A program made the translations under genes and the position numbers. The notes beneath the pieces were generated by a model. The model searched no databases. It was not told the origin of the DNA and saw only the letters and a list, made by a program, of their open reading frames with translations. A stretch of 64,000 nucleotides of DNA from Naegleria gruberi (lineage: Eukaryota), in the NCBI GenBank assembly GCA_000004985.1, contig GG738897.1, one strand, 5' to 3'. The number at the start of each line of letters is the position of its first letter. Position 1 is the stretch's first letter. This document shows positions 20,415-64,000 of the stretch, piece after piece.

Positions 20415-21641
20415 TTATTTAACAATATTAAATTTTGAAATTTTCTTAGCTAGATATGTTGATAAAAAGTTTAATCCCTTCACTGTAATGATTATCTCAA
20501 TTTCGAATTTTCTTAATTTCATACTTTGCAATTCATCTCTGACATGATCTAGTTCTTTTCTTTTGATGGAATCCTTGATATGACGATCAATAAGATTAAT
20601 TTCTCTTTGAGATATTGGCTGATTGTAATAATGTGGAATGTCCTTAACATCTTCGTAATTCATTCCAAGCCATTGAAGTCTATCTTTGAGTGCTGACTCT
20701 TGTTGAACTTTGTGTCTACTCATTTCAACACTTCCATACTTGTATGTACTCATAATTTGATATCCAAAAATATTGAAATCACATAAAGCATATAATCTAG
20801 CATTTGGAAATCTAGTAGAAACATGTTTCACAACATAACGAGTCACAATCGATGGATATCCACATCCAGTAATCAACAAACAATTCCTAACAAGTTTGAA
20901 AATCTTATCTTCCACAAGTCTTCTAAATATTGCATCTTTCTCAATAATTAACACAGTGTCCACATTTCCAAAATAATCAATTGAGGGAAAATCTCCTGGA
21001 ATGCTTTCCACTGAGGCCTGTTTGTTTCCATTAAGCGATAACAAGCTATTTCCTCTTCCATCATTGCTGTAAATAAATCCCTTACTCATGCAAATGATAT
21101 TCAATAAGGATCTGTCAACCTTCAACACATCACCAACAGTTGACAAACATCTATTACATTGAATTTGATCCCTGAATGTAGTAACATTCATATAAAACAA
21201 TTCTCTCTGAGTAATCTTCTTCCTACAATTCAACAGTAAATGAACATCCTTCATCAACAGCCAAACAAGATGATTCTTCTTAAGATGATTATTTTTCAAA
21301 CTCTTCTTCTCAAATGTTCCACTTTTTGATTTAATTATTTGATGAAGCCTTTCTCCATTAGACTGATTCGAATCCCTTGTTCCGAATGAATAATTTAAAA
21401 TCAAATCTTGTCCATTCTTTTCATCATTCTCAATCAATTTAAATAGAAACTCCAAAACATATGATTCAATCAATGATATAATCTCCTCATTCGGTAGTAA
21501 ATAGTGAATCTCACACATCTTTTCAATATCAAACAAGTTTAATTCATCTTCCATATCATCTTCATTCTCCTCCAAAACAAGCCTTGTTGCATTTTCAGAC
21601 AAGCCTTGTTCCTCATCCTCAGCATCGTTCTCATGATTCAT
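20415..21641 (-). CDS. SPO11: Spo11 / topoisomerase VI subunit A homologue (meiotic double-strand-break transesterase), intronless
   Basis: Toprim block CLLITGCGYPSIVTRYVVKHVSTRFPNARLYALCDFNIFGYQIMSTYKYGS matches Spo11/TopVIA (KGYPD.ATR.FL..L......PIY.LVD.DP.G..I...YKYGS). Upstream 5Y-CAP-like block RELFYMNVTTFRDQIQCNRCLSTVGDVLKVDRSLLNIICMSKGFIY contains the catalytic Tyr region (R..YY.....F..Q......I.D...ML...R..LNI.A..KG). Confidence 0.85.
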   Translation of the reverse strand: MNHENDAEDEEQGLSENATRLVLEENEDDMEDELNLFDIEKMCEIHYLLPNEEIISLIESYVLEFLFKLIENDEKNGQDLILNYSFGTRDSNQSNGERLHQIIKSKSGTFEKKSLKNNHLKKNHLVWLLMKDVHLLLNCRKKITQRELFYMNVTTFRDQIQCNRCLSTVGDVLKVDRSLLNIICMSKGFIYSNDGRGNSLLSLNGNKQASVESIPGDFPSIDYFGNVDTVLIIEKDAIFRRLVEDKIFKLVRNCLLITGCGYPSIVTRYVVKHVSTRFPNARLYALCDFNIFGYQIMSTYKYGSVEMSRHKVQQESALKDRLQWLGMNYEDVKDIPHYYNQPISQREINLIDRHIKDSIKRKELDHVRDELQSMKLRKFEIEIIITVKGLNFLSTYLAKKISKFNIVK

Positions 21642-44852: not shown

Positions 44853-45414
44853 TTTTTTTCAACTTGTTTTTTGAATTAAATATTCAATAATAATTTTATA
44901 ATATTATATTAAATATTATAAAATTATTATTACTAATAATAGTACTGGCTAGTATAATAAAAACTAGAAGAACATGAATAGCTGCTAATAATTATTACAA
45001 TATTTACATTTAGTTTAATAATTTTAAATCTTCATCATCGGGAGCGAAGAGTGATTTTTTCTTCCATTTATCTCTTCTGGTCATATTTTCTGATAATTTT
45101 AAATTATGATCATATTCCCACTTCGGAACATGAGGTATTTTGAATTTTCTTAAAATGTAATAAAATACAATTTCACCAGATCGACTGTATTAACACATTT
45201 TAAATATTATTAAATTAATTATAATAAAACAACATACAATAAAAACCATCCCCAAATTAAAGTATTAAAAATAAATTTTGGAATGTCCAAAGATGATGAG
45301 GACGAATCTCTTACCATAAGAGAAGACATTTTTTACAATTTGAATTTAATCAATTATTAATTTTGAATTGTAAAAATGATTAAGAGAAATTTACTTGAGG
45401 ATGATATTGGAATT

Positions 45415-47069
45415 CTACAGCTGAGTTATTGTAACATTATGTGAAGGTTTAATCCAAGAAGGACTATGATCATAGGTTCCTGGACCAATGTGTGGTGATT
45501 CAAATCTAGATATTGGAGCTGTCTGTACACGTGTATTCTTTGATAAATCAATTCCTTTTGGTTTCTTATCTGTAAATGAGGGTGGTAAATAATTCGGTCC
45601 AACAATTGCTGCTCTATCTCTTGGTAATTTCTCTGTAAATCTACTCGTTGTTGATGTGAACCCAGTTGTTCGTGTGGAAAATGATTTCTTTGACCAATTT
45701 TCATTTGCAATTGCATAAACTCCAACTGGAGGTGTTGTATCTTTCACTAATTTTCTTTCATTGTTATCAGAGCTTCTTGTTGTCCTGGATTGGAATGTAC
45801 TAGATCTTGCATCTGTCTTTCTTACTTGATTTAGTTTTTCAGGTACGTTATATGAACCTGGTGGAGGTGCTTTTGCTTTTTCTATATTTGTAAACCTAGC
45901 AGATGTTGAGCCAAATACACCAAAAGCACCTCTTGGTTTCTTTGTTAAATCATTTGTAAGATAATTACTATCATTGTAGCTTCCAGGTCCTGGAGGAGCA
46001 TCTTTGGATTTGTAATTAAATCTTTCAGTTTTAGCATTGAATGGTCCATGAACTTTTGTACGATCACTACTAACATATTTCTCCTCAAAAACTCTAATAT
46101 ATTCACCAGGTCCAGGTGCACTTGAAAATGTACTTGAAAAATCAAAAGGCCTAGATGTTGTACTTCCAAATGGTTGGTGTTTTGTTTTGTGAGCAAGTTT
46201 TGGCTCCTTAGAATCATAAGCTCCAGGTCCTAAATTTGGTGACCTTATTTTGTCAATTGGAACAAGTGATGATCGTTGAGTCCTAGATCCAAATATCGAA
46301 CCATAACTTCTTGACATATCATTCACTTTGCTGTCATATGCTCCAGGTCCTGGATTTTTTGGAATTTTAAATATGTCTCTTGTAGTTGAACTTGTAAATA
46401 TTCCTTGTGTTTTCCTTGGTGCTGTAATTTCTTCTACAAAATATTGACCTGGTCCAATTGAATCTTGATATGTTCCTTTATATCCTCCATCTGGTGGTCT
46501 TTGTCTTATTAATTCACCACGTGGACCTTCTTCATATCCATGTGATTGTGTATTAGCTGGAATTGATGGGGCAGTTGATAGTTGTTTAGTTGGAGTTGAT
46601 GGATTTCTTGTTTTTGGAGGTGATTTACTAAACTTTTTTTCAAGGAAACTGTCAATATCCGATTTTACTTGATAACTTCCAGGTCCTTAATTCATCAATT
46701 CAACATTAAATTATTATTCATATTAAATAGAAGAAATATAGAAAAAAAATTGGTCATAATAAACCTACCTGGATTTTCCTCAATTGATGTATTTAAATCA
46801 AATCTTGTTGTTGCAGATTTAAAAACAGAGGAACGATCGGTTTTTGAGGTGAAGGCTGTTGGACTTGAATAAGTACCAGGTCCAGGAGTGAGAAACTTTT
46901 CATTGGTTGATGTTGTGTACCTCTTTTCCGTTGAGAAGAATGGTGCTGAGGCATATTTAGGCTGTTTTAAGAATGGTTCATGAGAAATGTAACTACCCGG
47001 TCCTAGTGCATCACTTGTGTTTGTTTTGGAGAGATCAAAGTCTCTTATGGATCGGCTTACCCATGCCAT
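45415..47069 (-). CDS. STPG (sperm-tail PG-rich / SHIPPO repeat) protein, 2 exons: 46769..47069 and 45415..46685 (intron 46686..46768, GTAGGT..TTAAG)
   Basis: At least 14 copies of the G-P-G-x-Y / PGPG repeat spaced about 35-40 aa apart (LGPGSYISHEP, TPGPGTYSSP, GPGSYQVKSD, IGPGQYFVEE, NPGPGAYDSK, PNLGPGAYDSKEP, APGPGEYIRVF, PPGPGSYNDSNY, PPPGSYNVPEK, HIGPGTYDHSP). The second exon extends well upstream of the ORF-track start at 46326. Confidence 0.65.
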
Positions 47070-47418: not shown

Positions 47419-48326
47419 TTAAAATACACCAGAGTAATATTCTTCATAGGCTTGCATAATTTCCTCTCTCGTATTCATAACAAATGGTCCTTGTCTTGCA
47501 ACTGGTTCCTTAATAGGTTGACCTGATAAAATTAAGAATTGAACTTGATCAGATGTACTTTCAAATTCAAATTGAGTATTTTCAATTGTTTCATCGAATA
47601 AAACTGCAGATTTTTCAACAACTTGTTGATTTTCAAATATTCCATTTCCTTCAAATAAATAAATTAAACCTTGAAATCCTTTTGGAATTGTTTCTATGAA
47701 TTTTTCATTCTTCTTATTGATTTTAACATGACCTACTAATACAGGAGTTTTTAAAAGCACTGGACTATTTAAATCATGTGAAATACTTTTACCTGCCAGA
47801 ACAGAATAAAGTACATTTTCCGTAATTTGCTTTTTTGGAATTTCACTTGCTCTTAAATCTTGATAATATGGATCAATTAATTTATCTTGAGATTTTAAAT
47901 TAATCCAAATTTGAAACCCATGCATAGGTCCATCTCCAATTGGTGTTTCTTCATGTCTAATTCCTCTACCAGCTATTGTAATTATATTATTGTAAATAAT
48001 TGTAAAGTATTAACAAGTATTAACATACCAGTCATCCATTGAGCATCACCAGAAGATAAATAACCACTTCTTCCCAAACTATCTCTATGCCTAGTTTGAC
48101 CAGTTAATATATAAGAAAGTGTTTCAAATCCCTTATGAGGATGTTCTGGAAATCCATTTTTAGCATTTGGTATTTTAGCTTCATCCAATAATAAGAATGG
48201 ATCATGAACTGAAACTGTTGGTCCACCAATGGTTCTACACACTTTAACACCTGCACCTTCATTCACTTCCTTTCCGAGAATTGTTTTAAGAATTTTTAAT
48301 TTCATAGCGTGTTGTTGTAGACTCAT
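47419..48326 (-). CDS. Pirin (bicupin), 2 exons: 48029..48326 and 47419..47971 (intron 47972..48028, GTATGT..CAATAG)
   Basis: Exon 1 ...HPHKGFETLSYILTGQTRHRDSLGRSGYLSSGDAQWMTG| joins exon 2 |AGRGIRHEETPIGDGPMHGFQIWINLK, giving the canonical pirin GD.QWMTAG.GI.HEE motif and HPH.GFET metal site. Confidence 0.85.
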
Positions 48327-49921: not shown

Positions 49922-52900
49922 TCAAATAAAACTTTGATTTGATTTTGTTGGAGATGAAGAAGGTGAAGAATTAGTTGATAATTGTTTTAAATTTTTCAAT
50001 CTTGGACTATTTGGACTTGAATTTCCATTTAAATTATTATTGGTAAAAGGTGATTCTAATGAAATATTTCCATTTATAGTATTATTATTAACAATTGAAC
50101 AAATATTTGGAATTGGTAAATTAATATTTCCACTATTTAATTTAATTAAAGAATATTGTTGTAATTTTTTAATAATATTTACATAAGAATTATTTAAATC
50201 ACCATTTAAAAGTAATAAAATAATAAAAAATAAATCATCTGAATATTGAATTAAAGGTTTTTTAAATTTAAATGTTAAAAATGTTTTTAATTGATTAACA
50301 TCAATATTTGTATTAATTAAATCCTTATTTGGATTAATTTCCAAAATTAGAAGTTGTAATAAAATAAATCCAATACATTTTATATCTTTTTTAAAATAAT
50401 CATTTTGATTTTGATTTAAAAGTTCATTCATATTTTCATATTGAATTTGTTCAAATACTAAATTTGTATCGTGATGTTTTTTTAACATTGAATTAATTCT
50501 TTGTTTTAAAATTCTATTTTGGTTTTGAATTTCTAAATTTGTAAAATCTTGTAAATATTCAATTCCACTTAAAATTATTTCAAAATCTTTTTCATTAAAA
50601 AGTAAAGTTTCTAAATTTAAATGATTATGTACTTGTTGCCTTTTATGGAGATATTGAATAACTTCAATTAATTGTTTTCCTATTTTGTAAATTTCAATTT
50701 CTTCAAATAATATTGTTTGATTTTGTAAAAATTGTTGAAATGTTGGATAATAGTTTGTAACATAATAATAATTATCATTAAAATAAAATTCTTCTATTTT
50801 TGATTGTAAATATTTATGTTTAAATATATTATATTTAGAAATCTAATTAAATTAAATATAAAAATATAAAATAAATATTAAATTAAATATTAAATTAAAT
50901 TAAAATATATTATAAACATACCATATTTGTAAATTCTGATAAAGTATTAAATTTACTAATAAATGAAATTTCTAATTTTTGTAAATCATTTACTTTATAA
51001 ATAGTATATTGATTTAAATGTTTAATATTTTCAATAATTTTAAATCTTCCATTATAAATAAATTGATCATTAAATTTCTTTAAAAAATTAAAAATTGCCT
51101 TTTTCTTTTTTCTTGAACTTTTTAATTCTGGTAATTTTAATAAAACTTTATCAAATCTATTTAAACATTCCTTTCTAGCATTACTATCATCTAAATGATT
51201 TACAAAAACATTTAAAATATCAACAATTGTATCAATAGTTGGTCTTGTTAATGGATGTAATTGTAACATTGATATTACTAATCGAATTATTAATTCTGGT
51301 ATTCCATTATTTTTTAACTTGTTACAAATAATTGAATGAGTTTCATTTTCATCGGTTTTTATAGCTTCATGCATTAAAAATTTAGTTTCTTGATTTTTTA
51401 CATTTCTAATAATTTGAATTTCCAATGTTAATAATTCATAAAATACACATCCCAATGAAAATATATCTATTATTATTATTATTATTATTATTATTGGTAT
51501 GAATTAGTATGAATTAGTATCATGATGATGATGATGATATTAAGGTGATGATAAATCCAATTAAATGTTATTAAAATATTAAATATATTAAAATATTAAA
51601 CATACCACTATTTTTATCAATTTTAAAATTACCAGTTGAACATTCAGGTGATAAAGTAATTGGTGTTCCTCTAAAACTAATTGTATTTAAATCATTTGTT
51701 GAAGTTAATAAACCAAAATCACCAATTGCAACTTCTTCCATATTTAGAGTTGAAGAATAATTAATTAAAATATTTTCATTTTTTAAATCTCTATAAATTA
51801 AATTATTAAAATGAATTTGTTGTAAACCTAAACAAATTTGTAATAAAATATTTAACCAATTTGGAACTGTTTTTAAATTTCTTAATTTTGAATTTGTAAT
51901 TAATTGTTGTAATGAAGATTTATAAAAAGGCATAACAAGACAACATGAATATTCATCATTTTTCTTTTCAATTGAATAATCTAAATATGGTATTAGATTT
52001 GGATGTTTTAAATTTGAAACTTGTTCAATATTCCATTGTAATTCTTTTAATTTAATTGAATCTAAATTTTGTATTAATTTTTTAATAGCAACATCTCCAA
52101 ATTGAATTGATTTACAATGAAATACAGTTCCTTCTCCTCCACTTGCTATTTTTTTTAAAACAACATATTTACCATTACATAATGTATGTACTGTTATGGA
52201 TTTTAACCAAATTGGTTCAATTTGAATTAAATTTAAAATTAAATATTTTAATAACATTGAAATATGATTTCCTTTAGAAAATTCAGGTAATTTACCAATT
52301 ATTTGTTTACCAAATATCCACATATGTTTTAATGTATAACTAACTAATTGTATATTAAATATTTCCTTCTTTTTCTTTTTTTGATTATTCAATTTTTTTA
52401 AATCTTGTTCAATAAAACTTTTTATAGCTTCCATACTTGTTTGAAAGGCAATTTGTTCATCTTTAGATATTTTAGAATCGGGAAATTTAACCCTATCAGA
52501 TTTTACAAGTAATTTTATAGCTGCCAATATTGAACATGTTAAAATAAAGATTAAATGTGAACATGATTTTTGTGATAATAATGTATAATATCTATTCAAT
52601 TCTATATCTATATTATTACTAGTAGTAGTTGTATTATTTGTATTATTTGTATTATTTGTATTATTTGTATGAGTATTATTAGAATTATTAGAATTATTAG
52701 ATGATGAATTACCCTGATCAATAGTTGCTCTAAATGAAGTTGTAGGTAAATGTAAATTAATTTCCTCAGTGAGTGGATTATGATCATTGGAATTGAAAAA
52801 ATTATTCATACTACTTCTATTTTGATTATTTTGATTATTATTATTGAATGATTTTAAAACTCTACCAAATGTTGCAGGTGTTGGTAATTGTTTTCTATCA

Positions 52901-55366
52901 ACAAAACCAAAAGCATCAATAACTAATTTTTGTAAATCATCAAAATTATTTGGTATTTGAGTAAAGAATGGTTCATTAGAATCTTCATCAATTGAACTTA
53001 AAATTGTATCTTCTAAATATTGAATAAAAGTTTCAATTATAATTGTAATATTTTGTTCAAATGCAATCATTAGAGTATAAATTAATTCATTCAATCTTGT
53101 TGAATTTTGAAAGAAATTTGTTATATTAATATAAACAAACATGAAATCCTTATTTGATTTTAAATTTAAATGATGATTTTGTATAAAATCTTTCATTCTC
53201 TTTTTAATTAAAAATAAATAATCAAAATTTTGACCAAATTTATCAATTTGTAATTTTTGAAATTCAATTTGATTTTGTAAATAAGCATCAGAAGAAGCTT
53301 TAAAATAAAATTCAAAATATTTTAAATCATATTCACCTTGTATCATATCATATAATGAAAGTGATTGAAAATAATCTAATAATTTTTTATAATTAATTGA
53401 TTTTTCTGTAATTGAATGTAATGTAAAATAATTATCTAATAATTGAATTTTACTAAATTTATCCATTGGATATATTGCTGATTTTAATACTGTTATTACT
53501 TTACCATCACATAAAAAATCAAAATGATCAATTTTATAATAATATTGATTAAAATATTTTGTAAAAAATCTACTTTTAATATTTCCATTTATAGTAATTA
53601 TTTTACCTCTATCTGCTATAAATAAATCATTTTCTAATAATTCTGTTACATAATGTGTTAATAATATTTTAATTGGTTTATAATTTGTATATTCTCCACT
53701 ACAATATACACTTCCTGAATTACTTAAAAAGTAACAATTATTTTTAGAACATTCAATATCTATAATTGGTATATCTTGTTCTATAAAATATGTTAATTTT
53801 TCAAATTCTCCATATATATCATTAGTATGATTTAATCCAAATTTACCAAATTGATTTTCACCATATACATATATATTAAATGTTGATGTTAAAATTAAAA
53901 TACTTTTATCATGACATGAAATTTTTTTAATAAAATCTTTTTGAATATTTCTATTATTATTTAAATTATTTATATTATTTAAATTATTATTTAAATTTAT
54001 ATTATTTATATTATTATTTAAATTATTTATATTATTTAAATTAGAATTATTTAAATTAGAATTATTTAAAATTAATTGATTATTAAAATTTGGAAATGGA
54101 ATTGGTTTTGTACAAAAATTTTTAACATCTTTACATTTAATTCCAATTTCATCATCATTACAAATTCCACAAATAAATAAATCAAAATCTTTTGTAATCA
54201 TTAAAACATAATATTTTGTTAATGATGAAATTGAATGAATATTTGATGTAATAAGTGTTGGTGTTTTAATTACTTTTAATCTATTATCTGTATTACTTGT
54301 TATATCTGAATAATAATTAATTCCACATCCATATAAATTACCACTTTCTATATTATTTTAAATATTATTTATTTAATAAATATATTTAATATTATATTTA
54401 GTTCTATATTATTTTAAATATATTGTAAACATACCAGTTAAAAATAAAGTACTTTCATATAAAGTTGTAATTTTCTTAATTTTTTCACCTTTAAAATTAT
54501 TAAATTGTAATCTAGTTGGTATTTGAGTGAGAGGTTTATTATGTCCTAATCCTAATTGATAATTATTATTATTACCTGCTACCCAAATACTTTCATCCTC
54601 TTTTATTAAATATTAAATATTAAATATGATAAATATTTAAAAACATACCCATTACTATAAAAGTACAATAATTTTCAGTATAAATATTTCTAATTCTAGA
54701 AACATCAATTGAATCTCTATATTCATTCTTTACACCTAACATTATTAAATGATTTTCATACACTTCAGAGTCTTGTTGATCATCAAATTGTTGTTGATCA
54801 TCATCACCATATAATATATAATCATCATCATCAATGGCTACTAAATATTGTCCATAATTAGTATTCTCTTTAATAATACCACTATTTAATATTAATGTAC
54901 TTGATCCACTCAATTTATTTAAGTGATTAATTTTATAAAACAAATATTCTACATTAATAGTATTCTTATTGATCATATATTTACTTAGTGATGATAATGC
55001 TGATGCTGATGCTTTTATATTTTGATTAGATGATGATCCTACTCCTACTATAATATTACTACCACTATTACTACCAGGTGATGATACAGGTGAATCTATT
55101 GGTGTAGCAATTGATGATCTAAAGCCTAGTGCATTGTTATAATTACCTGAAAGGCTTGTTGATGATGATGATGGTGATATTGAAGTATCATTTTTATGAA
55201 TACTAAAATATTCTTGATCCGAAGTAAATAATTTTAATAAATTCTGAGAACTTGTAGTACTGCCACTAGATGTTGACAGTCTATTATTATTGTTATTGGT
55301 GAGAATGGATGGTGAAGAATTGGAGGGTGATAGAGAAGGTGAATTTAATGAATGTCTTGAAGACAT
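49922..55366 (-). CDS. Very large (1696 aa) RCC1-repeat + protein kinase + second kinase-like (pseudokinase?) domain protein with poly-Asn tracts, 5 exons: 54649..55366, 54435..54599, 51606..54347, 50922..51466, 49922..50842
   Basis: Introns 54600..54648 (G|GTATGT..AAAAG), 54348..54434 (GTATGT..TATAG), 51467..51605 (GTATGT..AATAG), 50843..50921 (GTATGT..AATTAG). Exon lengths sum to 5091 nt, or 1696 codons plus stop. RCC1 blades (GNNNNYQLGLGHNK, GNLYGCGINYY, YVYGENQFGKFGL). Kinase: GGEGTVFHCK..VAIKKL, HFNNLIYRDLKNENILIN, IGDFGL, GTPITLSPE, DIFSLGCVFYELL. Second degenerate kinase-like lobe (YLHKRQQVHNHLNLETLLFNE). Confidence 0.7.
52612..52700 (-). repeat. Tandem 11-mer (tattatttgta)x4 plus (attattaga)n within kinase exon 3, encoding (NNT)n / (SNN)n
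   Basis: gtattatttgtattatttgtattatttgtattatttgta at 52624-52664. Translates on the minus strand to TNNTNNTNNTNNT within ...SNNSNNSNNTHTNNTNNTNNTNNTTTTSNN. Confidence 0.8.
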
Positions 55367-55555
55367 TTTTTATACTGTCTGACACTTGGCGTTTGATTGA
55401 TCAACATTGTGGATAATTGATGGATAAAAACTCTTGAGCAGCAAAGAAAGAGCGGGAAGGTAGTTAACTTCCTTTTTTGAGTGTTAGCCACAATATTATG
55501 AATCAAATTTTGACAACAAAACAATTTAGTGTTGATTATAAATTTAAATGAATCA
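55367..55555. promoter_or_regulatory. Divergent (bidirectional) promoter spacer between the kinase gene (minus, ATG 55366) and the C5-methyltransferase gene (plus, ATG 55556)
   Basis: 189-nt spacer of moderate GC (gacacttggcgtttgattgatcaacattgtgg...agagcgggaaggtag) lying between two extremely AT-rich head-to-head genes. Confidence 0.5.
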
Positions 55556-58500
55556 ATGAGTGAATCAGAATCATCACAAGAACAAGTTGAAATTCTAGAT
55601 GATTTATCATATATACATAATTATAAAGATGATATATTATTATTAGATGAATTTTATTTATTAAATGATGAAAATGTTTACATTTCATTAACTGATAATA
55701 ATAATAAACAATCTATTTCTATATATGGAATATTATATAATAGTAATAAAATACCAAATAATTTAATTATAGATATGAATAATTTAATTCATGAAGATTT
55801 AAATATAATAATTTCAAAATTAAAATTAGAATCAAAATTTATTGGAAAATTAATTAATTTTAATATTGAATATGATAAATGTAAAAAACCAATAATTTTA
55901 TTTACTATAAATAGAAATGATAAAATATTTGAATGTGAATGTCTAAGATGTGATTCAGATTATTTTAAAATTTTTAAAAAAATTTATAATTTATCTTCAA
56001 TTACATTTTGTTTAATTTTATCTATTTTTAAATTTCCTAAACATGGAATTAATAAAATTATAAATGAATCAAATTCAATTTCAAAAGAATTTAAATTAAA
56101 TATAAATATAAATTTAGAAATAATTAAAAATAATTATAATTTTATTATTGATGAAATTCATAAATTAAATAATGAAAAAATATTTAAAAGTAAATTTATT
56201 AATGAAATTTCAAATATTTTATTTAATAATTCTGAAATGGAAGAATATTCATCAGATTCTTCAGATTCATCTGATTATGATTATAAATTAACACCTAAAA
56301 AGGAAAGAAAACAATTAAAAAGAAAAAATGAAAATTTAAATTCTAAAAAAAGAAAAAAATTTAAAGAATTTAAAAATGAATTTGAAATTGAATTTTTAAA
56401 AGATGAAAATTCTATTAAAATTAATAATGAAATTATTCAAGATGGAGAAGCAATATATTTATTTCCATATTTAGAATTATTTCCAGATTTTTTAAAAAGT
56501 AAAATTGATATAAATTATTATCCTTATTTTATTTTTCAAATTAAATTTAAAAATAATGAAATTTATGGTAAAAGATTATTTAGACATTATGATTTAGCCT
56601 TTTTAAGTTTAAAAAATAATTTAAATATTTTAACTAGAGATGTAAATGAATTATTTTTAGATGAAAATGAAATTTTAATTCCAATACAAAAATACTATAT
56701 AAGGAAATGTTATGTTTTTTATTTAATTGAAACAAATGAATTTGAATCAATTTCTAAAGATATAAGAGAACGAAGAGATATTTTTTATTGTAAACATTTA
56801 ATTAATATTAAAAATAATTTTCAAAATTTTGAATTACTAAATATAGAAAAATTATATTGTAAAAATATGTTTAATTTAATTGATAATTATTCTAAATTTA
56901 TTTTAAATAATTTAATTATTGAAAATGAAAATACAAGAAATTTATTAATTGGATTGGATTTATTTGGTGGATGTGGAGGTTTATCTTTTGGTTTATCTAA
57001 ATCTGGAATTAATATGAAATATGCAATTGATAATAATATTGATGCTATAAATAATTTTCAATTAAATTTTAAAAATTCAAATACTTTTTGTAAAGATTCA
57101 ATTAAATTTTTACAAAAAGTTAAAATTATTAATGAATTGAGAAAATTATGTANNNNNNNNNNNNNNNNNNNNNNNNNNNNNNNNNNNNNNNNNNNNNNNN
57201 NNNNNNNNNNNNNNNNNNNNNNNNNNNNNNNNNNNNNNNNNNNNNNNNNNNNNNNNNNNNNNNNNNNNNNNNNNNNNNNNNNNNNNNNNNNNNNNNNNNN
57301 NNNNNNNNNNNNNNNNNNNNNNNNNNNNNNNNNNNNNNNNNNNNNNNNNNNNNNNNNNNNNNNNNNNNNNNNNNNNNNNNNNNNNNNNNNNNNNNNNNNN
57401 NNNNNNNNNNNNNNNNNNNNNNNNNNNNNNNNNNNNNNNNNNNNNNNNNNNNNNNNNNNNNNNNNNNNNNNNNNNNNNNNNNNNNNNNNNNNNNNNNNNN
57501 NNNNNNNNNNNNNNNNNNNNNNNNNNNNNNNNNNNNNNNNNNNNNNNNNNNNNNNNNNNNNNNNNNNNNNNNNNNNNNNNNNNNNNNNNNNNNNNNNNNN
57601 NNNNNNNNNNNNNNNNNNNNNNNNNNNNNNNNNNNNNNNNNNNNNNNNNNNNNNNNNNNNNNNNNNNNNNNNNNNNNNNNNNNNNNNNNNNNNNNNNNNN
57701 NNNNNNNNNNNNNNNNNNNNNNNNNNNNNNNNNNNNNNNNNNNNNNNNNNNNNNNNNNNNNNNNNNNNNNNNNNNNNNNNNNNNNNNNNNNNNNNNNNNN
57801 NNNNNNNNNNNNNNNNNNNNNNNNNNNNNNNNNNNNNNNNNNNNNNNNNNNNNNNNNNNNNNNNNNNNNNNNNNNNNNNNNNNNNNNNNNNNNNNNNNNN
57901 NNNNNNNNNNNNNNNNNNNNNNNNNNNNNNNNNNNNNNNNNNNNNNNNNNNNNNNNNNNNNNNNNNNNNNNNNNNNNNNNNNNNNNNNNNNNNNNNNNNN
58001 NNNNNNNNNNNNNNNNNNNNNNNNNNNNNNNNNNNNNNNNNNNNNNNNNNNNNNNNNNNNNNNNNNNNNNNNNNNNNNNNNNNNNNNNNNNNNNNNNNNN
58101 NNNNNNNNNNNNNNNNNNNNNNNNNNNNNNNNNNNNNNNNNNNNNNNNNNNNNNNNNNNNNNNNNNNNNNNNNNNNNNNNNNNNNNNNNNNNNNNNNNNN
58201 NNNNNNNNNNNNNNNNNNNNNNNNNNNNNNNNNNNNNNNNNNNNNNNNNNNNNNNNNNNNNNNNNNNNNNNNNNNNNNNNNNNNNNNNNNNNNNNNNNNN
58301 NNNNNNNNNNNNNNNNNNNNNNNNNNNNNNNNNNNNNNNNNNNNNNNNNNNNNNNNNNNNNNNNNNNNNNNNNNNNNNNNNNNNNNNNNNNNNNNNNNNN
58401 NNNNNNNNNNNNNNNNNNNNNNNNNNNNNNNNNNNNNNNNNNNNNNNNNNNNNNNNNNNNNNNNNNNNNNNNNNNNNNNNNNNNNNNNNNNNNNNNNNNN

Positions 58501-59497
58501 NNNNNNNNNNNNNNNNNNNNNNNNNNNNNNNNNNNNNNNNNNNNNNNNNNNNNNNNNNNNNNNNNNNNNNNNNNNNNNNNNNNNNNNNNNNNNNNNNNNN
58601 NNNNNNNNNNNNNNNNNNNNNNNNNNNNNNNNNNNNNNNNNNNNNNNNNNNNNNNNNNNNNNNNNNNNNNNNNNNNNNNNNNNNNNNNNNNNNNNNNNNN
58701 NNNNNNNNNNNNNNNNNNNNNNNNNNNNNNNNNNNNNNNNNNNNNNNNNNNNNNNNNNNNNNNNNNNNNNNNNNNNTATATATTTATTTAATTTTATTTA
58801 ATTTTATTTATATTTATTATATATTTATTTTATATTTAATATTTAATATTTTAAAATAGAATCAAGAATATTAACAGTTAGAGAATGTACTAGAATTCAA
58901 GGATTTCCAGATACATTTATATTTGTAGATGATAAAGTACCATATTGTAAAAGTCAAAAATTAAAAGAGAAATATACTCAAATAGGAAATGCAGTACCAG
59001 TTGTATTTGGATATCAATTTGGAATTGAATTTAGAAAAGCATATTCTAAATTAAAAAATATTAATAATGATTTTAAATCAATATCAAAATTATTTGAAAC
59101 TATTTTTTTAAATGAAACTAGAGAATTTATGGAAAATAATGATTCATCTTTTATAGAATCAACTCAAATTTGGACTGTTAAAGATTTTGAAATACCAGAT
59201 GATTTAAAAGAAGGTTTTTTATTACCTTTTAGACAAGATGAATTGGATTTTCAAAAATCACAAGAATTTTTACAATATTTATCAGAACCAGTAAAAGAAA
59301 ACACTAAAATTACTACTAAAATTACTTCTAAAAAGACAATAACAACAACAACAATTAGGAATAGTAATGTTGCAGATGAGGACATTGTATCATCAACAGA
59401 TGAAGAGGAAGAATTTGGTTATACTTCTGATTTGGAAGAGGAATTAATAACAAGTTCGATGAGTGAAATTGAAGATAGTGATGATAGTACCATTTAA
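55556..59497 (+). CDS. Dnmt1/MET1-like DNA (cytosine-5)-methyltransferase with a 480-aa Lys/Asn/Ile-rich N-terminal region; exon 1 runs from 55556 into assembly gap 57153..58776, last exon 58860..59497
   Basis: Motif I LIGLDLFGGCGGLSFGLSKSGINMKYAIDNNIDAINNFQLNFKNSNTFCKDSIKFL (compare Dnmt1 LDVFSGCGGLSEGFHQAGI...[31 protein letters not shown]). After the gap and an AT-rich 3' intron end (..TTTTAAAATAG at 58859): ESRILTVRECTRIQGFPDTFIFVDDKVPYCKSQKLKEKYTQIGNAVPVVFGYQFGIEF, i.e. motifs IX (RE.AR.QGFPD.F.F) and X (R.QIGNAVPP). Motifs IV (PCQ), VI (ENV), VIII and the target-recognition domain would lie inside the N-run. ORF 59129..59497 is the acidic C-terminal tail of the same exon. Confidence 0.7.
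57153..58776. other. Assembly gap (1624 N) inside the methyltransferase gene
   Basis: Uninterrupted run of n; the flanks are in different exons of one gene. Confidence 0.99.
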
Positions 59498-59875: not shown

Positions 59876-62526
59876 GATCTATTCTTTGCTCAATGCTGGA
59901 GTTGGTAAGAGTAGATTTATTAATACAATGATTGAGGCTGATATTTTACCTTCTTCAAGTGGAAATAATCATGTTACCAAGAGTTTAATTAATCTTCAAT
60001 ATGGCAAAGATTATTCAATGGAAATTATTCTTTGCACAGATGAAGAGTTGAGAGAAAGATGTCAAGAAACACAATATCAACTCGATCCAAATTATATTAT
60101 ATTCCTAAATTATATAGTGGTATAACTCGTTTCAAAAATGCACAAAGTCTGAAAGTAATATTGAACAAAGACAATTATCCATGACCAAGGATGATATGTA
60201 TCATGTCAAATTATTTCGTATAACTGCTCCAATTCCACTATTGAAAGAACAAAAATTGGAAATTATTGATGTACCAGGTTTGTTCAGTGGTGAATACAGT
60301 TTACTTTTTAATAGATTAGCAATAGAAGCAAGTTTAATTTCAGATACCATTAATATATTTCCAAATAATTTTCGTTCTATTTTCCCAACAGACATATTTG
60401 ATATTGTTGGAAAGGTATTCTCACATCACTCTGCACAACGTTCTCCTAAAATGTTTGTTTATACTTATGGAGGAAAATATACTAGTATGAAGAATGCTTC
60501 AATAGAATTCTTAAATTCTCTTTCAGAAAAAGAGGTCACTGAAAAAGAAATAGAATTCTCTCAACTTTTAGAAGATTATTTTGATTACAAGTTTGATGAT
60601 GTACCTTTTGATAAATCAAATAGAGTCAGTGAAATTATTGGCAAGGTGGAATTTGTAGAACCAAAAGTTCAAGTTTTAGAATTTTTGAAAGATAATTTCA
60701 TGTTATATCCAATTCCAAATTTAGATTCTAAAAATCATTCAAATGAGTTAAAGTTGACTAAAAGATATTTCAAGTTGACTATAATTAGAGATAAACTCAT
60801 TAAAGCTACAAGACTAGTTGAAGAGATTAGTAGAACAGCAATTCTTTGCTTACCTAAACTTATTTCTAGCTCCAAATATCAGTCTAAAAAGCTTGATGAA
60901 TTTGTTGATGAGATAATGACAGAATGTCAAGAAATAATAGAATTCTTACTTGGTAAATTTAAAGACTAATAATTATTCAAAGAAGGAAAAAGCAGGTAAA
61001 ATTGATAAATGGTTGGGAGATAACTTTTTAACAGAAGAGTTAGAATTTAATAGTGAGTCTAAAGCTCACAACAGTATTTTAAAGCATTTAAAACTATTAG
61101 AAGACAATATTAGAACATTAGCAGAAACATATTTTGTTTCAGAATCAAGTGGAAATGATTGTGAAGATTACAAGGGTTTTAAAGCAATGGTTTTACCAAT
61201 GTTTGATGTTGAGAGTGGTGATCATGTCATTCTTGCAACAGAAACCAAAGGTGTATTGAAAGAATTATTAGGAACCTATTTAAATTCTATTAGTAGTAAC
61301 AAATATGAACCTAATTTCAATCAACATTATGCTCACTTGCATTTATTTGAAACAAATTCCAAAAAATCTCTATCTCTACCAACTAAATCTTCCTATTCAG
61401 ATATTGATGAAATGAAACAAGCAAAGTTATTTAATAATAGAGATGACGTTAATAATTGTTTTAGACATGATAAGACTATGGCTAAAATTGTTCATGAATT
61501 AATGTCAACCATTCCACTTCAATCTAATCTTATTACAATTTCTCNNNNNNNNNNNNNNNNNNNNNNNNNNNNNNNNNNNNNNNNNNNNNNNNNNNNNNNN
61601 NNNNNNNNNNNNNNNNNNNNNNNNNNNNNNNNNNNNNNNNNNNNNNNNNNNNNNNNNNNNNNNNNNNNNNNNNNNNNNNNNNNNNNNNNNNNNNNNNNNN
61701 NNNNNNNNNNNNNNNNNNNNNNNNNNNNNNNNNNNNNNNNNNNNNNNNNNNNNNNNNNNNNNNNNNNNNNNNNNNNNNNNNNNNNNNNNNNNNNNNNNNN
61801 NNNNNNNNNNNNNNNNNNNNNNNNNNNNNNNNNNNNNNNNNNNNNNNNNNNNNNNNNNNNNNNNNNNNNNNNNNNNNNNNNNNNNNNNNNNNNNNNNNNN
61901 NNNNNNNNNNNNNNNNNNNNNNNNNAATTTCTCAATATATTCTCAAGATGAACAAATCAATCTATTCCAATGAGATTGCTGAATGTGAAAACATTAAGAA
62001 TATACTCACTTCTCAAGATAAGAATCGTTGGATTTCTGATATTTCACCATTTTTAGAAAATTTAAAAATAGTTGATAATGAAATTAATTTGAGAAAAAAA
62101 CAAACATCAAATTTAGAATCAACTTTCAAATCTTCATTCTTTTCAATGAATAAGGGTAGAGTTAGTTGTTATGATGGACGTGATACTAAATCATATGGAG
62201 ATAAGATTTATTCAAGAGAGGGATTTAATTACATGATTTCCAATGGAGTGAGTGGTGTTGAAACATTTTATCTTCCATCTATGAAGGATATTTTACCAAT
62301 TCCTGACAATTTAATTATGAAGAAATATGATGAATCAAATCAAGATTTCAATTTGAAAACCTTAATGTTGAAATTCAGATGTAACATGTTATCAAATGGA
62401 GTTGGAGGTTTCTTTCATGTTGGATTTAAATTTAAAAAGAAGATACAAAGAAAACGTTGCAGAAGAACTTCAAAGAGAAAGACTAATTCAAGTTCTTCTT
62501 CTACCATCAATAAGAAGAGAAAGTAA
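59876..62526 (+). CDS. Dynamin-superfamily large GTPase, fragmented model: exon pieces 59876..60116, 60190..60952, 60993..61544 (runs into gap 61545..61925), continuing 61926..62526 with a basic C-terminus; 5' exon not found
   Basis: G1 NAGVGKSRFINTMIEADILPSSSGNNHVTKSLINLQYGKD parallels dynamin [36 protein letters not shown]. G3 EIIDVPGLFSG lies about 95 aa downstream after removing the candidate intron 60117..60189, which is the dynamin-type spacing. Frame changes at 60118-60125 and 60950-60969 are resolved by candidate introns 60117..60189 (weak GTGGTA donor) and 60953..60992 (GTAAAT..AAAAAG), or are assembly indels. ORFs 60181..60969, 60950..61951 and 61948..62526 belong to one gene. Confidence 0.45.
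61545..61925. other. Assembly gap (381 N) inside the dynamin-like GTPase gene
   Basis: Uninterrupted run of n. Confidence 0.99.
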
Positions 62527-62821: not shown

Positions 62822-64000
62822 TTAAATAATTAATAAACCAGATTTAAAAGCATGTACAAATTCATTAAAATCAATAATACCATTCTTATCTGTATCTAAT
62901 TGATCAAAAATAATTCTAGTTTCATTCAATAATTGATTTTCATTTAAATTTTGAAATTTACTCATTGATCTTCTCATATGTAATAATTCATCAAATGTAA
63001 TTGAATTATCCTTATTAATATCAAATGTATTAAATAAATGATATAATACTTGTTCTGTATTATTATTATTATTATTTAAATTATTATTATTATTTAAATT
63101 ATTATTATTATTTATATTATTATTTAAATTATTATTATTATTATTATTTAATTGATTATAAAACATTAAAAAAGCAACAACAAATTCTCTAAAATCAATT
63201 TTACCAGAATGATCAGTATCAAATAAATTGAAATGATTTTCAATAAATAATTTATCATTAATATTAAATAATTTCATAATAATATTAATAAAATCATTTC
63301 TAGATAAAGTACCAGTTTTTTTATCTGAAATATTTTGAAAATATTCTAATAATTTGTTAAATAAATCTGAATCTATATTTGTATTTTGAGTTAATTGTTT
63401 AAAAGTTTTATATTTTAATTCAATTTCTTCATTTTCTAAATCAATTAAAGATTTACTTGATAAAGTTAAAGTTTTATAATAATCTTGATCATTTAAATTT
63501 GAAATATTTTGAATTGATTGTAAAATTTTAGATAATTTTATAATTTTATCTTTTTTTTCTTGATATTGTAATTTAAATGAATTTAATAATGGATTTGTTT
63601 GTTTTTCAATTAAATTAAAAGATTGATTTAAAATTTCTTGAATTAAATTTTCAATTTTTAAAGAAATTTCTTTAAAATTAAATTTATCAAATAAATTTTT
63701 TAAAAATAATAATAAAATATTTAAATATTCTTCTAATGATCTTGTTTGTTGTTTTGAATATTTCCAATTATTTATAGATTCTCTAATTGGTGAATTTACA
63801 ATTCCTTTTAATAAATTTAAAATTTCAATTATATTTGAAATATTAAATTTTTGTAAAATAATTAATTGATAATTTATAATTTCATTTTTAGTAACTCCAC
63901 TAAATAAAGAACTTCCTAATTGAGTAGATGGTAATAATTTACCATTTGTATTATTTAAAATTGATAATAAACAATTAATTGTATAATAAATTAATTCAAA
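62822..64000 (-). CDS. Coiled-coil protein with C-terminal EF-hand calcium-binding domains and poly-Asn insert; 5' end lies beyond the window (partial)
   Basis: The reading frame is open on the minus strand from 62822 to the window edge (...KIENLIQEILNQSFNLIEKQTNPLLNSFKLQYQEKKDKIIKLSKILQ...SDKKTGTLSRNDFINI...). EF-hand loops DTDHSGKIDFREF, DINKDNSITFDEL, DTDKNGIIDFNEF. ORF-track entry 62822..63277 is only the segment after an internal Met. Confidence 0.55.
   Translation of the reverse strand, partial: FELIYYTINCLLSILNNTNGKLLPSTQLGSSLFSGVTKNEIINYQLIILQKFNISNIIEILNLLKGIVNSPIRESINNWKYSKQQTRSLEEYLNILLLFLKNLFDKFNFKEISLKIENLIQEILNQSFNLIEKQTNPLLNSFKLQYQEKKDKIIKLSKILQSIQNISNLNDQDYYKTLTLSSKSLIDLENEEIELKYKTFKQLTQNTNIDSDLFNKLLEYFQNISDKKTGTLSRNDFINIIMKLFNINDKLFIENHFNLFDTDHSGKIDFREFVVAFLMFYNQLNNNNNNNLNNNINNNNNLNNNNNLNNNNNNTEQVLYHLFNTFDINKDNSITFDELLHMRRSMSKFQNLNENQLLNETRIIFDQLDTDKNGIIDFNEFVHAFKSGLLII
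63060..63150 (-). repeat. (AAT/ATT)n microsatellite-like tract encoding poly-Asn in the EF-hand gene; a similar tract at 53930..54080 lies in the kinase gene
   Basis: tattattattattatttaaattattattattatttaaattattattattatttatattattatttaaattattattattattattattt translates to NNNNNNLNNNINNNNNLNNNNNLNNNNNN. Confidence 0.8.

Follow-up and report, generated by a model that had tools for sequence, protein, structure and literature searches.

Naegleria gruberi NAEGRDRAFT_52250 as a predicted STPG2-type sperm-tail PG-rich repeat protein

In Tetrahymena, the sequence P-G-P-G-x-Y was shown to be a microtubule-binding motif, with spacers of ~40 residues serving as 8-nm rulers that place each motif on the next tubulin dimer in a protofilament groove (Kubo et al., PMC10105768). 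Sperm-tail PG-rich repeat (STPG) proteins are located mostly outside the doublet microtubule yet weave into its lumen, and proteins with 12 motifs are expected to span 96 nm (PMC10105768). In Leishmania, the external doublet-microtubule-associated proteins are known as DMAPs (Doran et al., PMC7617938): one of these, DMAP5, adjoins or partly enters a one-dimer hole in protofilament A02 and was the sole new DMAP to be found beyond Discoba (PMC7617938). PDB entry 9Y6S represents the doublet microtubule of Leishmania tarentolae over its 96-nm repeat (PMC12637542), and the supplement of that study equates DMAP5 with STPG2, LtaP35.3930 and Tb927.9.11140, giving a periodicity of 96 nm and a length of 476 residues. 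Here, we analyse a gene on the minus strand of a 64,000-nucleotide stretch of Naegleria gruberi DNA (contig GG738897.1; hereafter the window), which on sequence grounds we identify as NAEGRDRAFT_52250, encoding a sperm-tail PG-rich repeat protein of the STPG2 type (DMAP5 in trypanosomatids). Naegleria converts from amoeba to flagellate, in the course of which basal bodies and 9+2 flagella are built de novo (PMC4819266, PMC2107041). A preliminary description of the window had argued that its source was likely to be a protist that passes through a flagellated stage and not a non-flagellate social amoeba or a fungus lacking zoospores, and the amoeboflagellate N. gruberi is indeed such an organism; since Naegleria builds flagella, the question of whether its genome holds other ciliary genes is settled without a genome survey.

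The coding span of the gene, including the stop codon, occupies positions 45415..47069 and yields 1572 nucleotides of spliced sequence that encode 523 residues followed by TAG. The span is divided into two exons by one short intron (Table 1), and both the first exon and the intron are as had been proposed in the preliminary description: the model that we derived is identical to the deposited one. If the intron is read through, the frame ends 25 codons into it (open reading frame (ORF) 46695..47069); the splice joining ENPG to PGSY restores a GPGSY motif, and the residues at this junction (P100, G101, P102, G103 and Y105) show little or no variation in the alignment of 20 diverse relatives that underlies all statements on conservation below. 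In a mechanical list of ORFs the gene appears only as two fragments, 46695..47069 and 45415..46326, the latter of which begins at an internal GTG because no in-frame start codon exists between 46685 and 46326. The extension of ~360 nucleotides 5' of this second fragment, also suggested previously, is likewise recovered, with the listed ORF starting at 46326 and the exon at 46685. Both ends of the protein agree with its family: the N-terminus encoded by exon 1, MAWVSRSIR, fits the consensus M-A-F-V-S-R-A-x-R (with M1 and R9 invariant), and the C-terminus encoded by exon 2, ...GPGTYDHSPSWIKPSHNVTITQL, aligns with the family motif PGPGxY...W/F-x-K-x-S/T-F/H-N-x-T. A protein search found the spliced product to be 100% identical, at 100% coverage, to the N. 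gruberi "predicted protein" XP_002672561.1 (further records: EFC39817.1, UniProt D2VU16, locus NAEGRDRAFT_52250; 326,913-bp scaffold), which already bears a precomputed PF07004 assignment. This identifies the window as nuclear DNA of N. gruberi. Gene and Pfam domain are thus already in public databases, and the family, its repeat, its mode of microtubule binding and the flagellate stage are established; the gene fits an ordinary ortholog within a family that has been characterised structurally.

The 523-residue protein contains nine strict GPGxY motifs, whereas 5000 residue shuffles gave 0.009 on average and never more than one. Three degenerate motifs (PPPGSY at residues 374-379, PPVGVY at 419-424 and VGPNY at 462-466) bring the number of PG units to 12, and a conserved QSHGY element at residues 147-151 stands in register between units 3 and 5; an additional PPDGGY at residues 164-169 falls out of register. 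The Tyr-to-Tyr distance over the 13 in-register units is 31-46 residues (mean 39.8), with a second half-motif resembling F-x-S-x-x-x-R-F located ~20 residues past the PG motif in most units. The preliminary description had counted at least 14 repeats: this number is reached with a loose pattern, whereas the meaningful count is 12 PG units and one conserved non-PG element. A search with the Pfam model PF07004 (SHIPPO-rpt), which had been recommended there, returned 78.2 bits (E 3.5e-22) with six separately significant stretches, against a gathering cut-off of 20 bits, and so identifies these as genuine SHIPPO/STPG repeats. The register of the repeats is also conserved: for 11 PG units the Tyr column is kept in 17-20 of the 20 aligned sequences, and PG unit 12 is shifted by one column, with G463 and P464 still conserved.

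Together with the Pfam score, full-length collinear homology with STPG2-type proteins bears out the earlier assignment to the STPG family. At E<=1e-3 the search yielded 859 relatives, the best 120 of which were examined: PF07004 is present in all 120, and every named source among them is flagellated or ciliated. The closest is N. lovaniensis C9374_010230 (51% identity), followed by N. fowleri FDP41_010865 (50%; UniRef name "Sperm-tail PG-rich repeat-containing protein 2") and by proteins of Willaertia magna (37%) and Percolomonas (34%), with identities of ~28-33% over the full length in Goniomonas, Prymnesium, oomycetes, Cymbomonas, Stentor, Blepharisma, Trimastix and frog STPG2; taken together, the full-length relatives show coverages of 86-100% and identities of 28-51%. 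The 20 aligned relatives share ~50 invariant columns, and these include non-repeat segments. Besides the N-terminal signature, the family possesses a central one (P-T-A-P-S-I-P-x-x-x-Q-S-x-G-Y-E-E-x-P-x-G-E-L-I-x-Q) and a C-terminal one (W-N-K-x-S-F-N-x-T).

A profile built from the same alignment was searched against all PDB sequences. The two strongest matches, both annotated as "Sperm-tail PG-rich repeat" and both 476 residues in length, are chains from trypanosomatid doublets: 9y6s_4F from L. tarentolae (E 2.2e-49) and 9e5c_0r from T. brucei (E 3.5e-43). Each is collinear with the profile from end to end, whilst the weaker matches are partial: Tetrahymena STPG1A (8g2z_6G, E 2.6e-9), DMAP7 (9e78_4I, E 2.8e-9) and the CIMAP1/ODF3 chains of 8otz, 8snb and 8iyj (E 4e-7 to 2e-5). 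This difference between a strong end-to-end match and weak partial ones argues for the STPG2-type subfamily and not for STPG1 or ODF3. Chain 9y6s_4F is identified here as DMAP5/STPG2 because its length of 476 residues fits the corresponding table entry in PMC12637542. The signatures of the STPG2/DMAP5 subfamily (12 units in register together with the N-terminal, the central QSxGYEE..GEL and the C-terminal N-x-T elements) are all present in the Naegleria protein, and direct BLASTP comparison with frog STPG2 (Spea bombifrons, P0108) aligns residues 6-520 with 27% identity (E 1e-28).

Comparison with these described proteins reveals a graded resemblance. The trypanosomatid DMAP5/STPG2 chains share with the Naegleria protein a match that is collinear from N- to C-terminus, a PG spacing of ~40 residues and the C-terminal pattern ...PG.Y....KK.FN.TI; the periodicity of 96 nm listed for DMAP5 agrees with the 12 motifs of Naegleria at 8 nm each, and the trypanosomatids belong, like Naegleria, to the supergroup Discoba. 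They differ in length (476 versus 523 residues), at a pairwise identity of ~25-29%, and whilst the Leishmania and Trypanosoma proteins have been placed physically on axonemal doublets, the Naegleria protein is known here from its sequence. Frog STPG2 matches in the N-terminus, in the central block APSIP..Q..GYEE..G.L.RQ.PP, in the register of the PG units and in the C-terminal F/H-N-x-T, but has 567 residues with extra units near the C-terminus. Tetrahymena STPG1A (8G2Z chain 6G), the source of the binding mechanism (a motif for every tubulin dimer, with the chain in an outer inter-protofilament groove and in part weaving into the lumen), has the same P-G-P-G-x-Y motif and a spacer of ~40 residues; with 5 motifs in 364 residues, a 48-nm B-tubule span and a match over ~110 residues, however, it represents a paralogous subfamily. 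CIMAP1/ODF3 (SHIPPO1), found in mammalian sperm and airway cilia (8OTZ, 8IYJ, 8SNB), is the founding member of PF07004 and displays the same repeat, but is a protein of ~250-300 residues with about half the repeats and falls into a separate subfamily.

The central element of the protein is specific to the STPG2-type family, most eukaryotic members of which possess it, and is not a PG motif, with residues P140, S141, P143, G150, Y151 and G157 invariant. Structure prediction with AlphaFold2 from the 20-sequence alignment gave a mean predicted local distance difference test score (pLDDT) of 45.8, a predicted template modelling score of 0.15 and almost no secondary structure. The only confident piece is a small beta-hairpin inside the central block (residues 151-161, pLDDT ~83; strands 151-153 and 159-161), the blocks within residues 151-170 showing pLDDT values of 83 and 65 and the remainder staying below 55. 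Such low values are consistent with an extended protein that would become ordered only upon binding, and not with a failed prediction of a globular domain; in this model no globular fold is seen, as is expected of a filamentous microtubule-associated type of protein. The predicted hairpin is, speculatively, a candidate for a special contact such as entry into the lattice. It is conceivable, albeit unlikely, that the region of ~138-161 could plug a particular hole in the lattice of the A-tubule, or thread through it, which would make STPG2 an ancestral external ruler of 96 nm that marks the site of a missing dimer. In Naegleria, all flagellar microtubules are assembled de novo in roughly one hour, and if the idea of hole-threading by STPG2 were true, this organism would be a clean system for testing it. 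The 12-unit register and the central hairpin are common to Naegleria through to vertebrates, which supports the view that this 96-nm external doublet protein was already present in the last common ancestor of eukaryotes.

On the basis of its relatives, the Naegleria protein is very probably an extended protein of 12 motifs that lies along the outer face of the axonemal doublet with a periodicity of ~96 nm and serves in the flagellate stage; it is from those relatives that we infer that it binds microtubules, spans 96 nm, sits externally on the axoneme and is used in a particular stage. The protein would be made in the flagellate stage and, being intrinsically extended, would become ordered only upon the microtubule, where its PG motifs would each hold on to a single tubulin dimer within an inter-protofilament groove. 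The 12 PG motifs could then occupy 12 consecutive dimers, and 12 × 8 nm corresponds to ~96 nm, the axonemal repeat, so that the protein would run along the outside of the doublet with this periodicity. At its conserved central element, which is short, the chain may enter or pass through the lattice. The protein would stabilise or mark the lattice and would not act as an enzyme. On this sequence evidence, the deposited "predicted protein" can be upgraded with confidence to a putative flagellar microtubule-binding protein of the STPG2/DMAP5 type, which goes little beyond annotation.

Several observations weigh against this reading. A single-sequence phmmer search against the PDB sequences returned no match at E 0.01 or even at E 10, so that the solved relatives were reached only with the 20-sequence profile, and direct BLASTP against the Leishmania chain (partly reconstructed from a printed alignment) gave a modest 29% identity over 183 residues, with a single-pair E of 5e-10. 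The Naegleria-type central element (residues 138-161, P-S-I-P...Q-S-x-G-Y-E-E...G-E-L) lies outside both stretches that were aligned with the trypanosomatid chains, and structural details may differ accordingly in this region. Our profile recovered Tetrahymena STPG1A but, at E<=1, gave no match to the protein of that entry which the Tetrahymena study terms "STPG2" (P-G-P-x-Y; protofilaments A6-A7). Different papers may therefore be using the name "STPG2" for proteins that are not orthologous, and an identical name is no guarantee of an identical position on the doublet: the Tetrahymena "STPG2" lies in the A6-A7 groove and Leishmania DMAP5 near A02. The identifiers 52250, NAEGRDRAFT_52250, D2VU16, XP_002672561 and EFC39817 are not mentioned in the literature and supplements that we searched, and data on the expression, localisation or proteomics of the Naegleria protein were likewise not found there. 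Furthermore, when the large ORFs of the 64-kb window were scanned against Pfam, no other axonemal marker was encountered and none of the neighbouring genes proved to be ciliary, though in a eukaryote little information is to be expected from the order of genes.

The lack of localisation and expression data in the searched literature also leaves room for an STPG-family protein that acts on other microtubules of the flagellate, such as basal-body or centriole triplets, a cortical array or the mitotic spindle, rather than on axonemal doublets. PG motifs bind the tubulin lattice in general (PMC10105768), which is compatible with such a role; the closest solved relatives, on the other hand, come from models of axonemal doublets that had been isolated from flagella, the named relatives among the best 120 all come from flagellated or ciliated taxa, and the 12 motifs fit a repeat of 96 nm that is specific to the axoneme. 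We therefore consider a role on other microtubules to be improbable and retain the external axonemal doublet as the preferred location.

The protein could also belong to a different subfamily: as an STPG1- or CIMAP1/ODF3-like protein, the gene product would be expected at another doublet position and with another periodicity, for example as a B-tubule wedge with a 48-nm repeat. The Pfam repeat is common to all of these proteins, and our profile does match the STPG1A, DMAP7 and CIMAP1 chains, but these matches are 40 orders of magnitude weaker (2.6e-9 to 2e-5 versus 2e-49) and comprise only 2-4 repeats, whilst the length of 523 residues, the 12 units and the signatures at the N-terminus, centre and C-terminus fit the STPG2 type from end to end; membership of another subfamily is thus very improbable. 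Scarcely credible, finally, is the scenario that the preliminary description had itself named as fatal to its proposal, in which the repeats would be a chance or generic Pro/Gly low-complexity tract in an AT-rich genome with no relation to STPG. The composition of the protein is certainly biased (S 13%, T 10.5%, P 10%) and disorder is predicted, but the excess of GPGxY motifs over the shuffled expectation, a Pfam score of 78 bits versus 20, the 859 relatives (with PF07004 in the best 120) and the ~50 columns that are invariant across 20 eukaryotes refute it. The STPG2-type reading of the gene is the one that we carry forward in Table 1.

Table 1. Position of the coding parts and conserved elements of the STPG2-type gene in the window.
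Feature	Position	Strand	Description
Exon 1	46769..47069	minus	301 nucleotides; ATG at 47069; residues 1-100 and first base of codon 101
Intron	46686..46768	minus	83 nucleotides, spliceosomal, GT..AG, phase 1; within a Gly codon, interrupting the third GPGSY motif
Exon 2	45415..46685	minus	residues 101-523; TAG stop at 45415-45417
In-register array of 13 units	45472..47003	minus	residues 23-505, across the intron; ~40 residues per unit; 12 PG motifs
Family-specific central non-PG element	46504..46575	minus	residues 138-161, TAPSIPANTQSHGYEEGPRGELIR

Two further genes flank the STPG2-type gene closely on the same strand. Directly upstream lies a Pirin gene (47419-48326, minus), the stop codon of which is ~350 nucleotides from the STPG2 start codon; it is split into two ORFs, with the N-terminal cupin in 47982..48326 and the C-terminal cupin in 47419..47925, and an intron of ~56 nucleotides probably separates the two. 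On the downstream side, ~75 nucleotides beyond the STPG2 stop codon, a probable small gene of two exons is located at ~45011-45340 (minus), running from ATGTCTTCTCTTATGgtaaga... to ...DDEDLKLLN and its stop codon; this gene is too short to appear in the ORF list, and its exon limits are approximate.

Elsewhere in the window, the Pfam scan assigned ORFs to LRR, actin-family, acyltransferase, GH15, TAF5-like WD40, BRCT, RUN, Spo11, Hikeshi, Vma22, PRP3, lipoate ligase, F-box/LRR, RhoGEF, TSR3-like, RGS, SLX9, Pirin and DXD glycosyltransferase domains or families. The Spo11 gene, on which the preliminary description had also drawn, is confirmed at 20415..21641 (minus) as a Spo11/topoisomerase VI-A homolog (TP6A_N, E 1.8e-14; Toprim, E 1.9e-30).

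The preliminary description had been surprised by an AT-rich island of Dictyostelium-like appearance, which neighbours the STPG2-type gene and the strangeness of which is lessened by our analysis. The bins with the lowest G+C content (GC), close to zero, are runs of N that represent scaffold gaps at 57153-58776 (1624 N) and 61545-61925; the true AT-rich sequence is found at 50001-57152 and 63001-64000 with a GC of 13-24%, and the portion at 50.0-57.15 kb (GC 14-24%) encodes proteins rich in poly-Asn. Within the first of these stretches, a multi-exon gene can be recognised at 49922-54201 (minus; ORFs 51571..54201, 50910..51455 and 49922..50488), in which RCC1-like repeats and a domain of the Ser/Thr protein kinase type (Pfam E 9e-22) are accompanied by long tracts of poly-Asn. 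This RCC1/kinase ORF has a single strong relative, N. lovaniensis C9374_010233 (E 1.4e-116), which is three locus tags away from the STPG2 ortholog C9374_010230 on what is taken to be the same contig (392,059 bp for both). We therefore regard the AT-rich block as native to Naegleria, with a gene order that is conserved, and contamination from Dictyostelium or horizontal transfer is rejected as its origin. No N. gruberi protein was returned by a protein search with the RCC1/kinase ORF, and the deposited N. gruberi gene set may lack this gene.

The gaps also affect the ORF list. ORFs 55529..58801 (1090 residues) and 57148..58791 (547 residues) run through the 1624 N and are rejected as genuine genes of these lengths, and 60950..61951 and 61519..61935 likewise cross runs of N, making their lengths artefacts. 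The part of the first ORF that precedes the gap (55529-57152, plus) contains a sequence resembling motif I of C5 DNA methyltransferases, LDLFGGCGGLSFG, with a Pfam DNA_methylase score just below the threshold (21.4 versus 22 bits): ended as it is by the 1624-N gap, this ORF may represent a DNA methyltransferase gene that has been truncated by the assembly. In the second AT-rich stretch, an ORF of 151 residues at 62822-63277 (minus) displays two EF-hand-like loops (DTDHSGKIDFREF and DTDKNGIIDFNEF) that flank a long Asn-rich tract.

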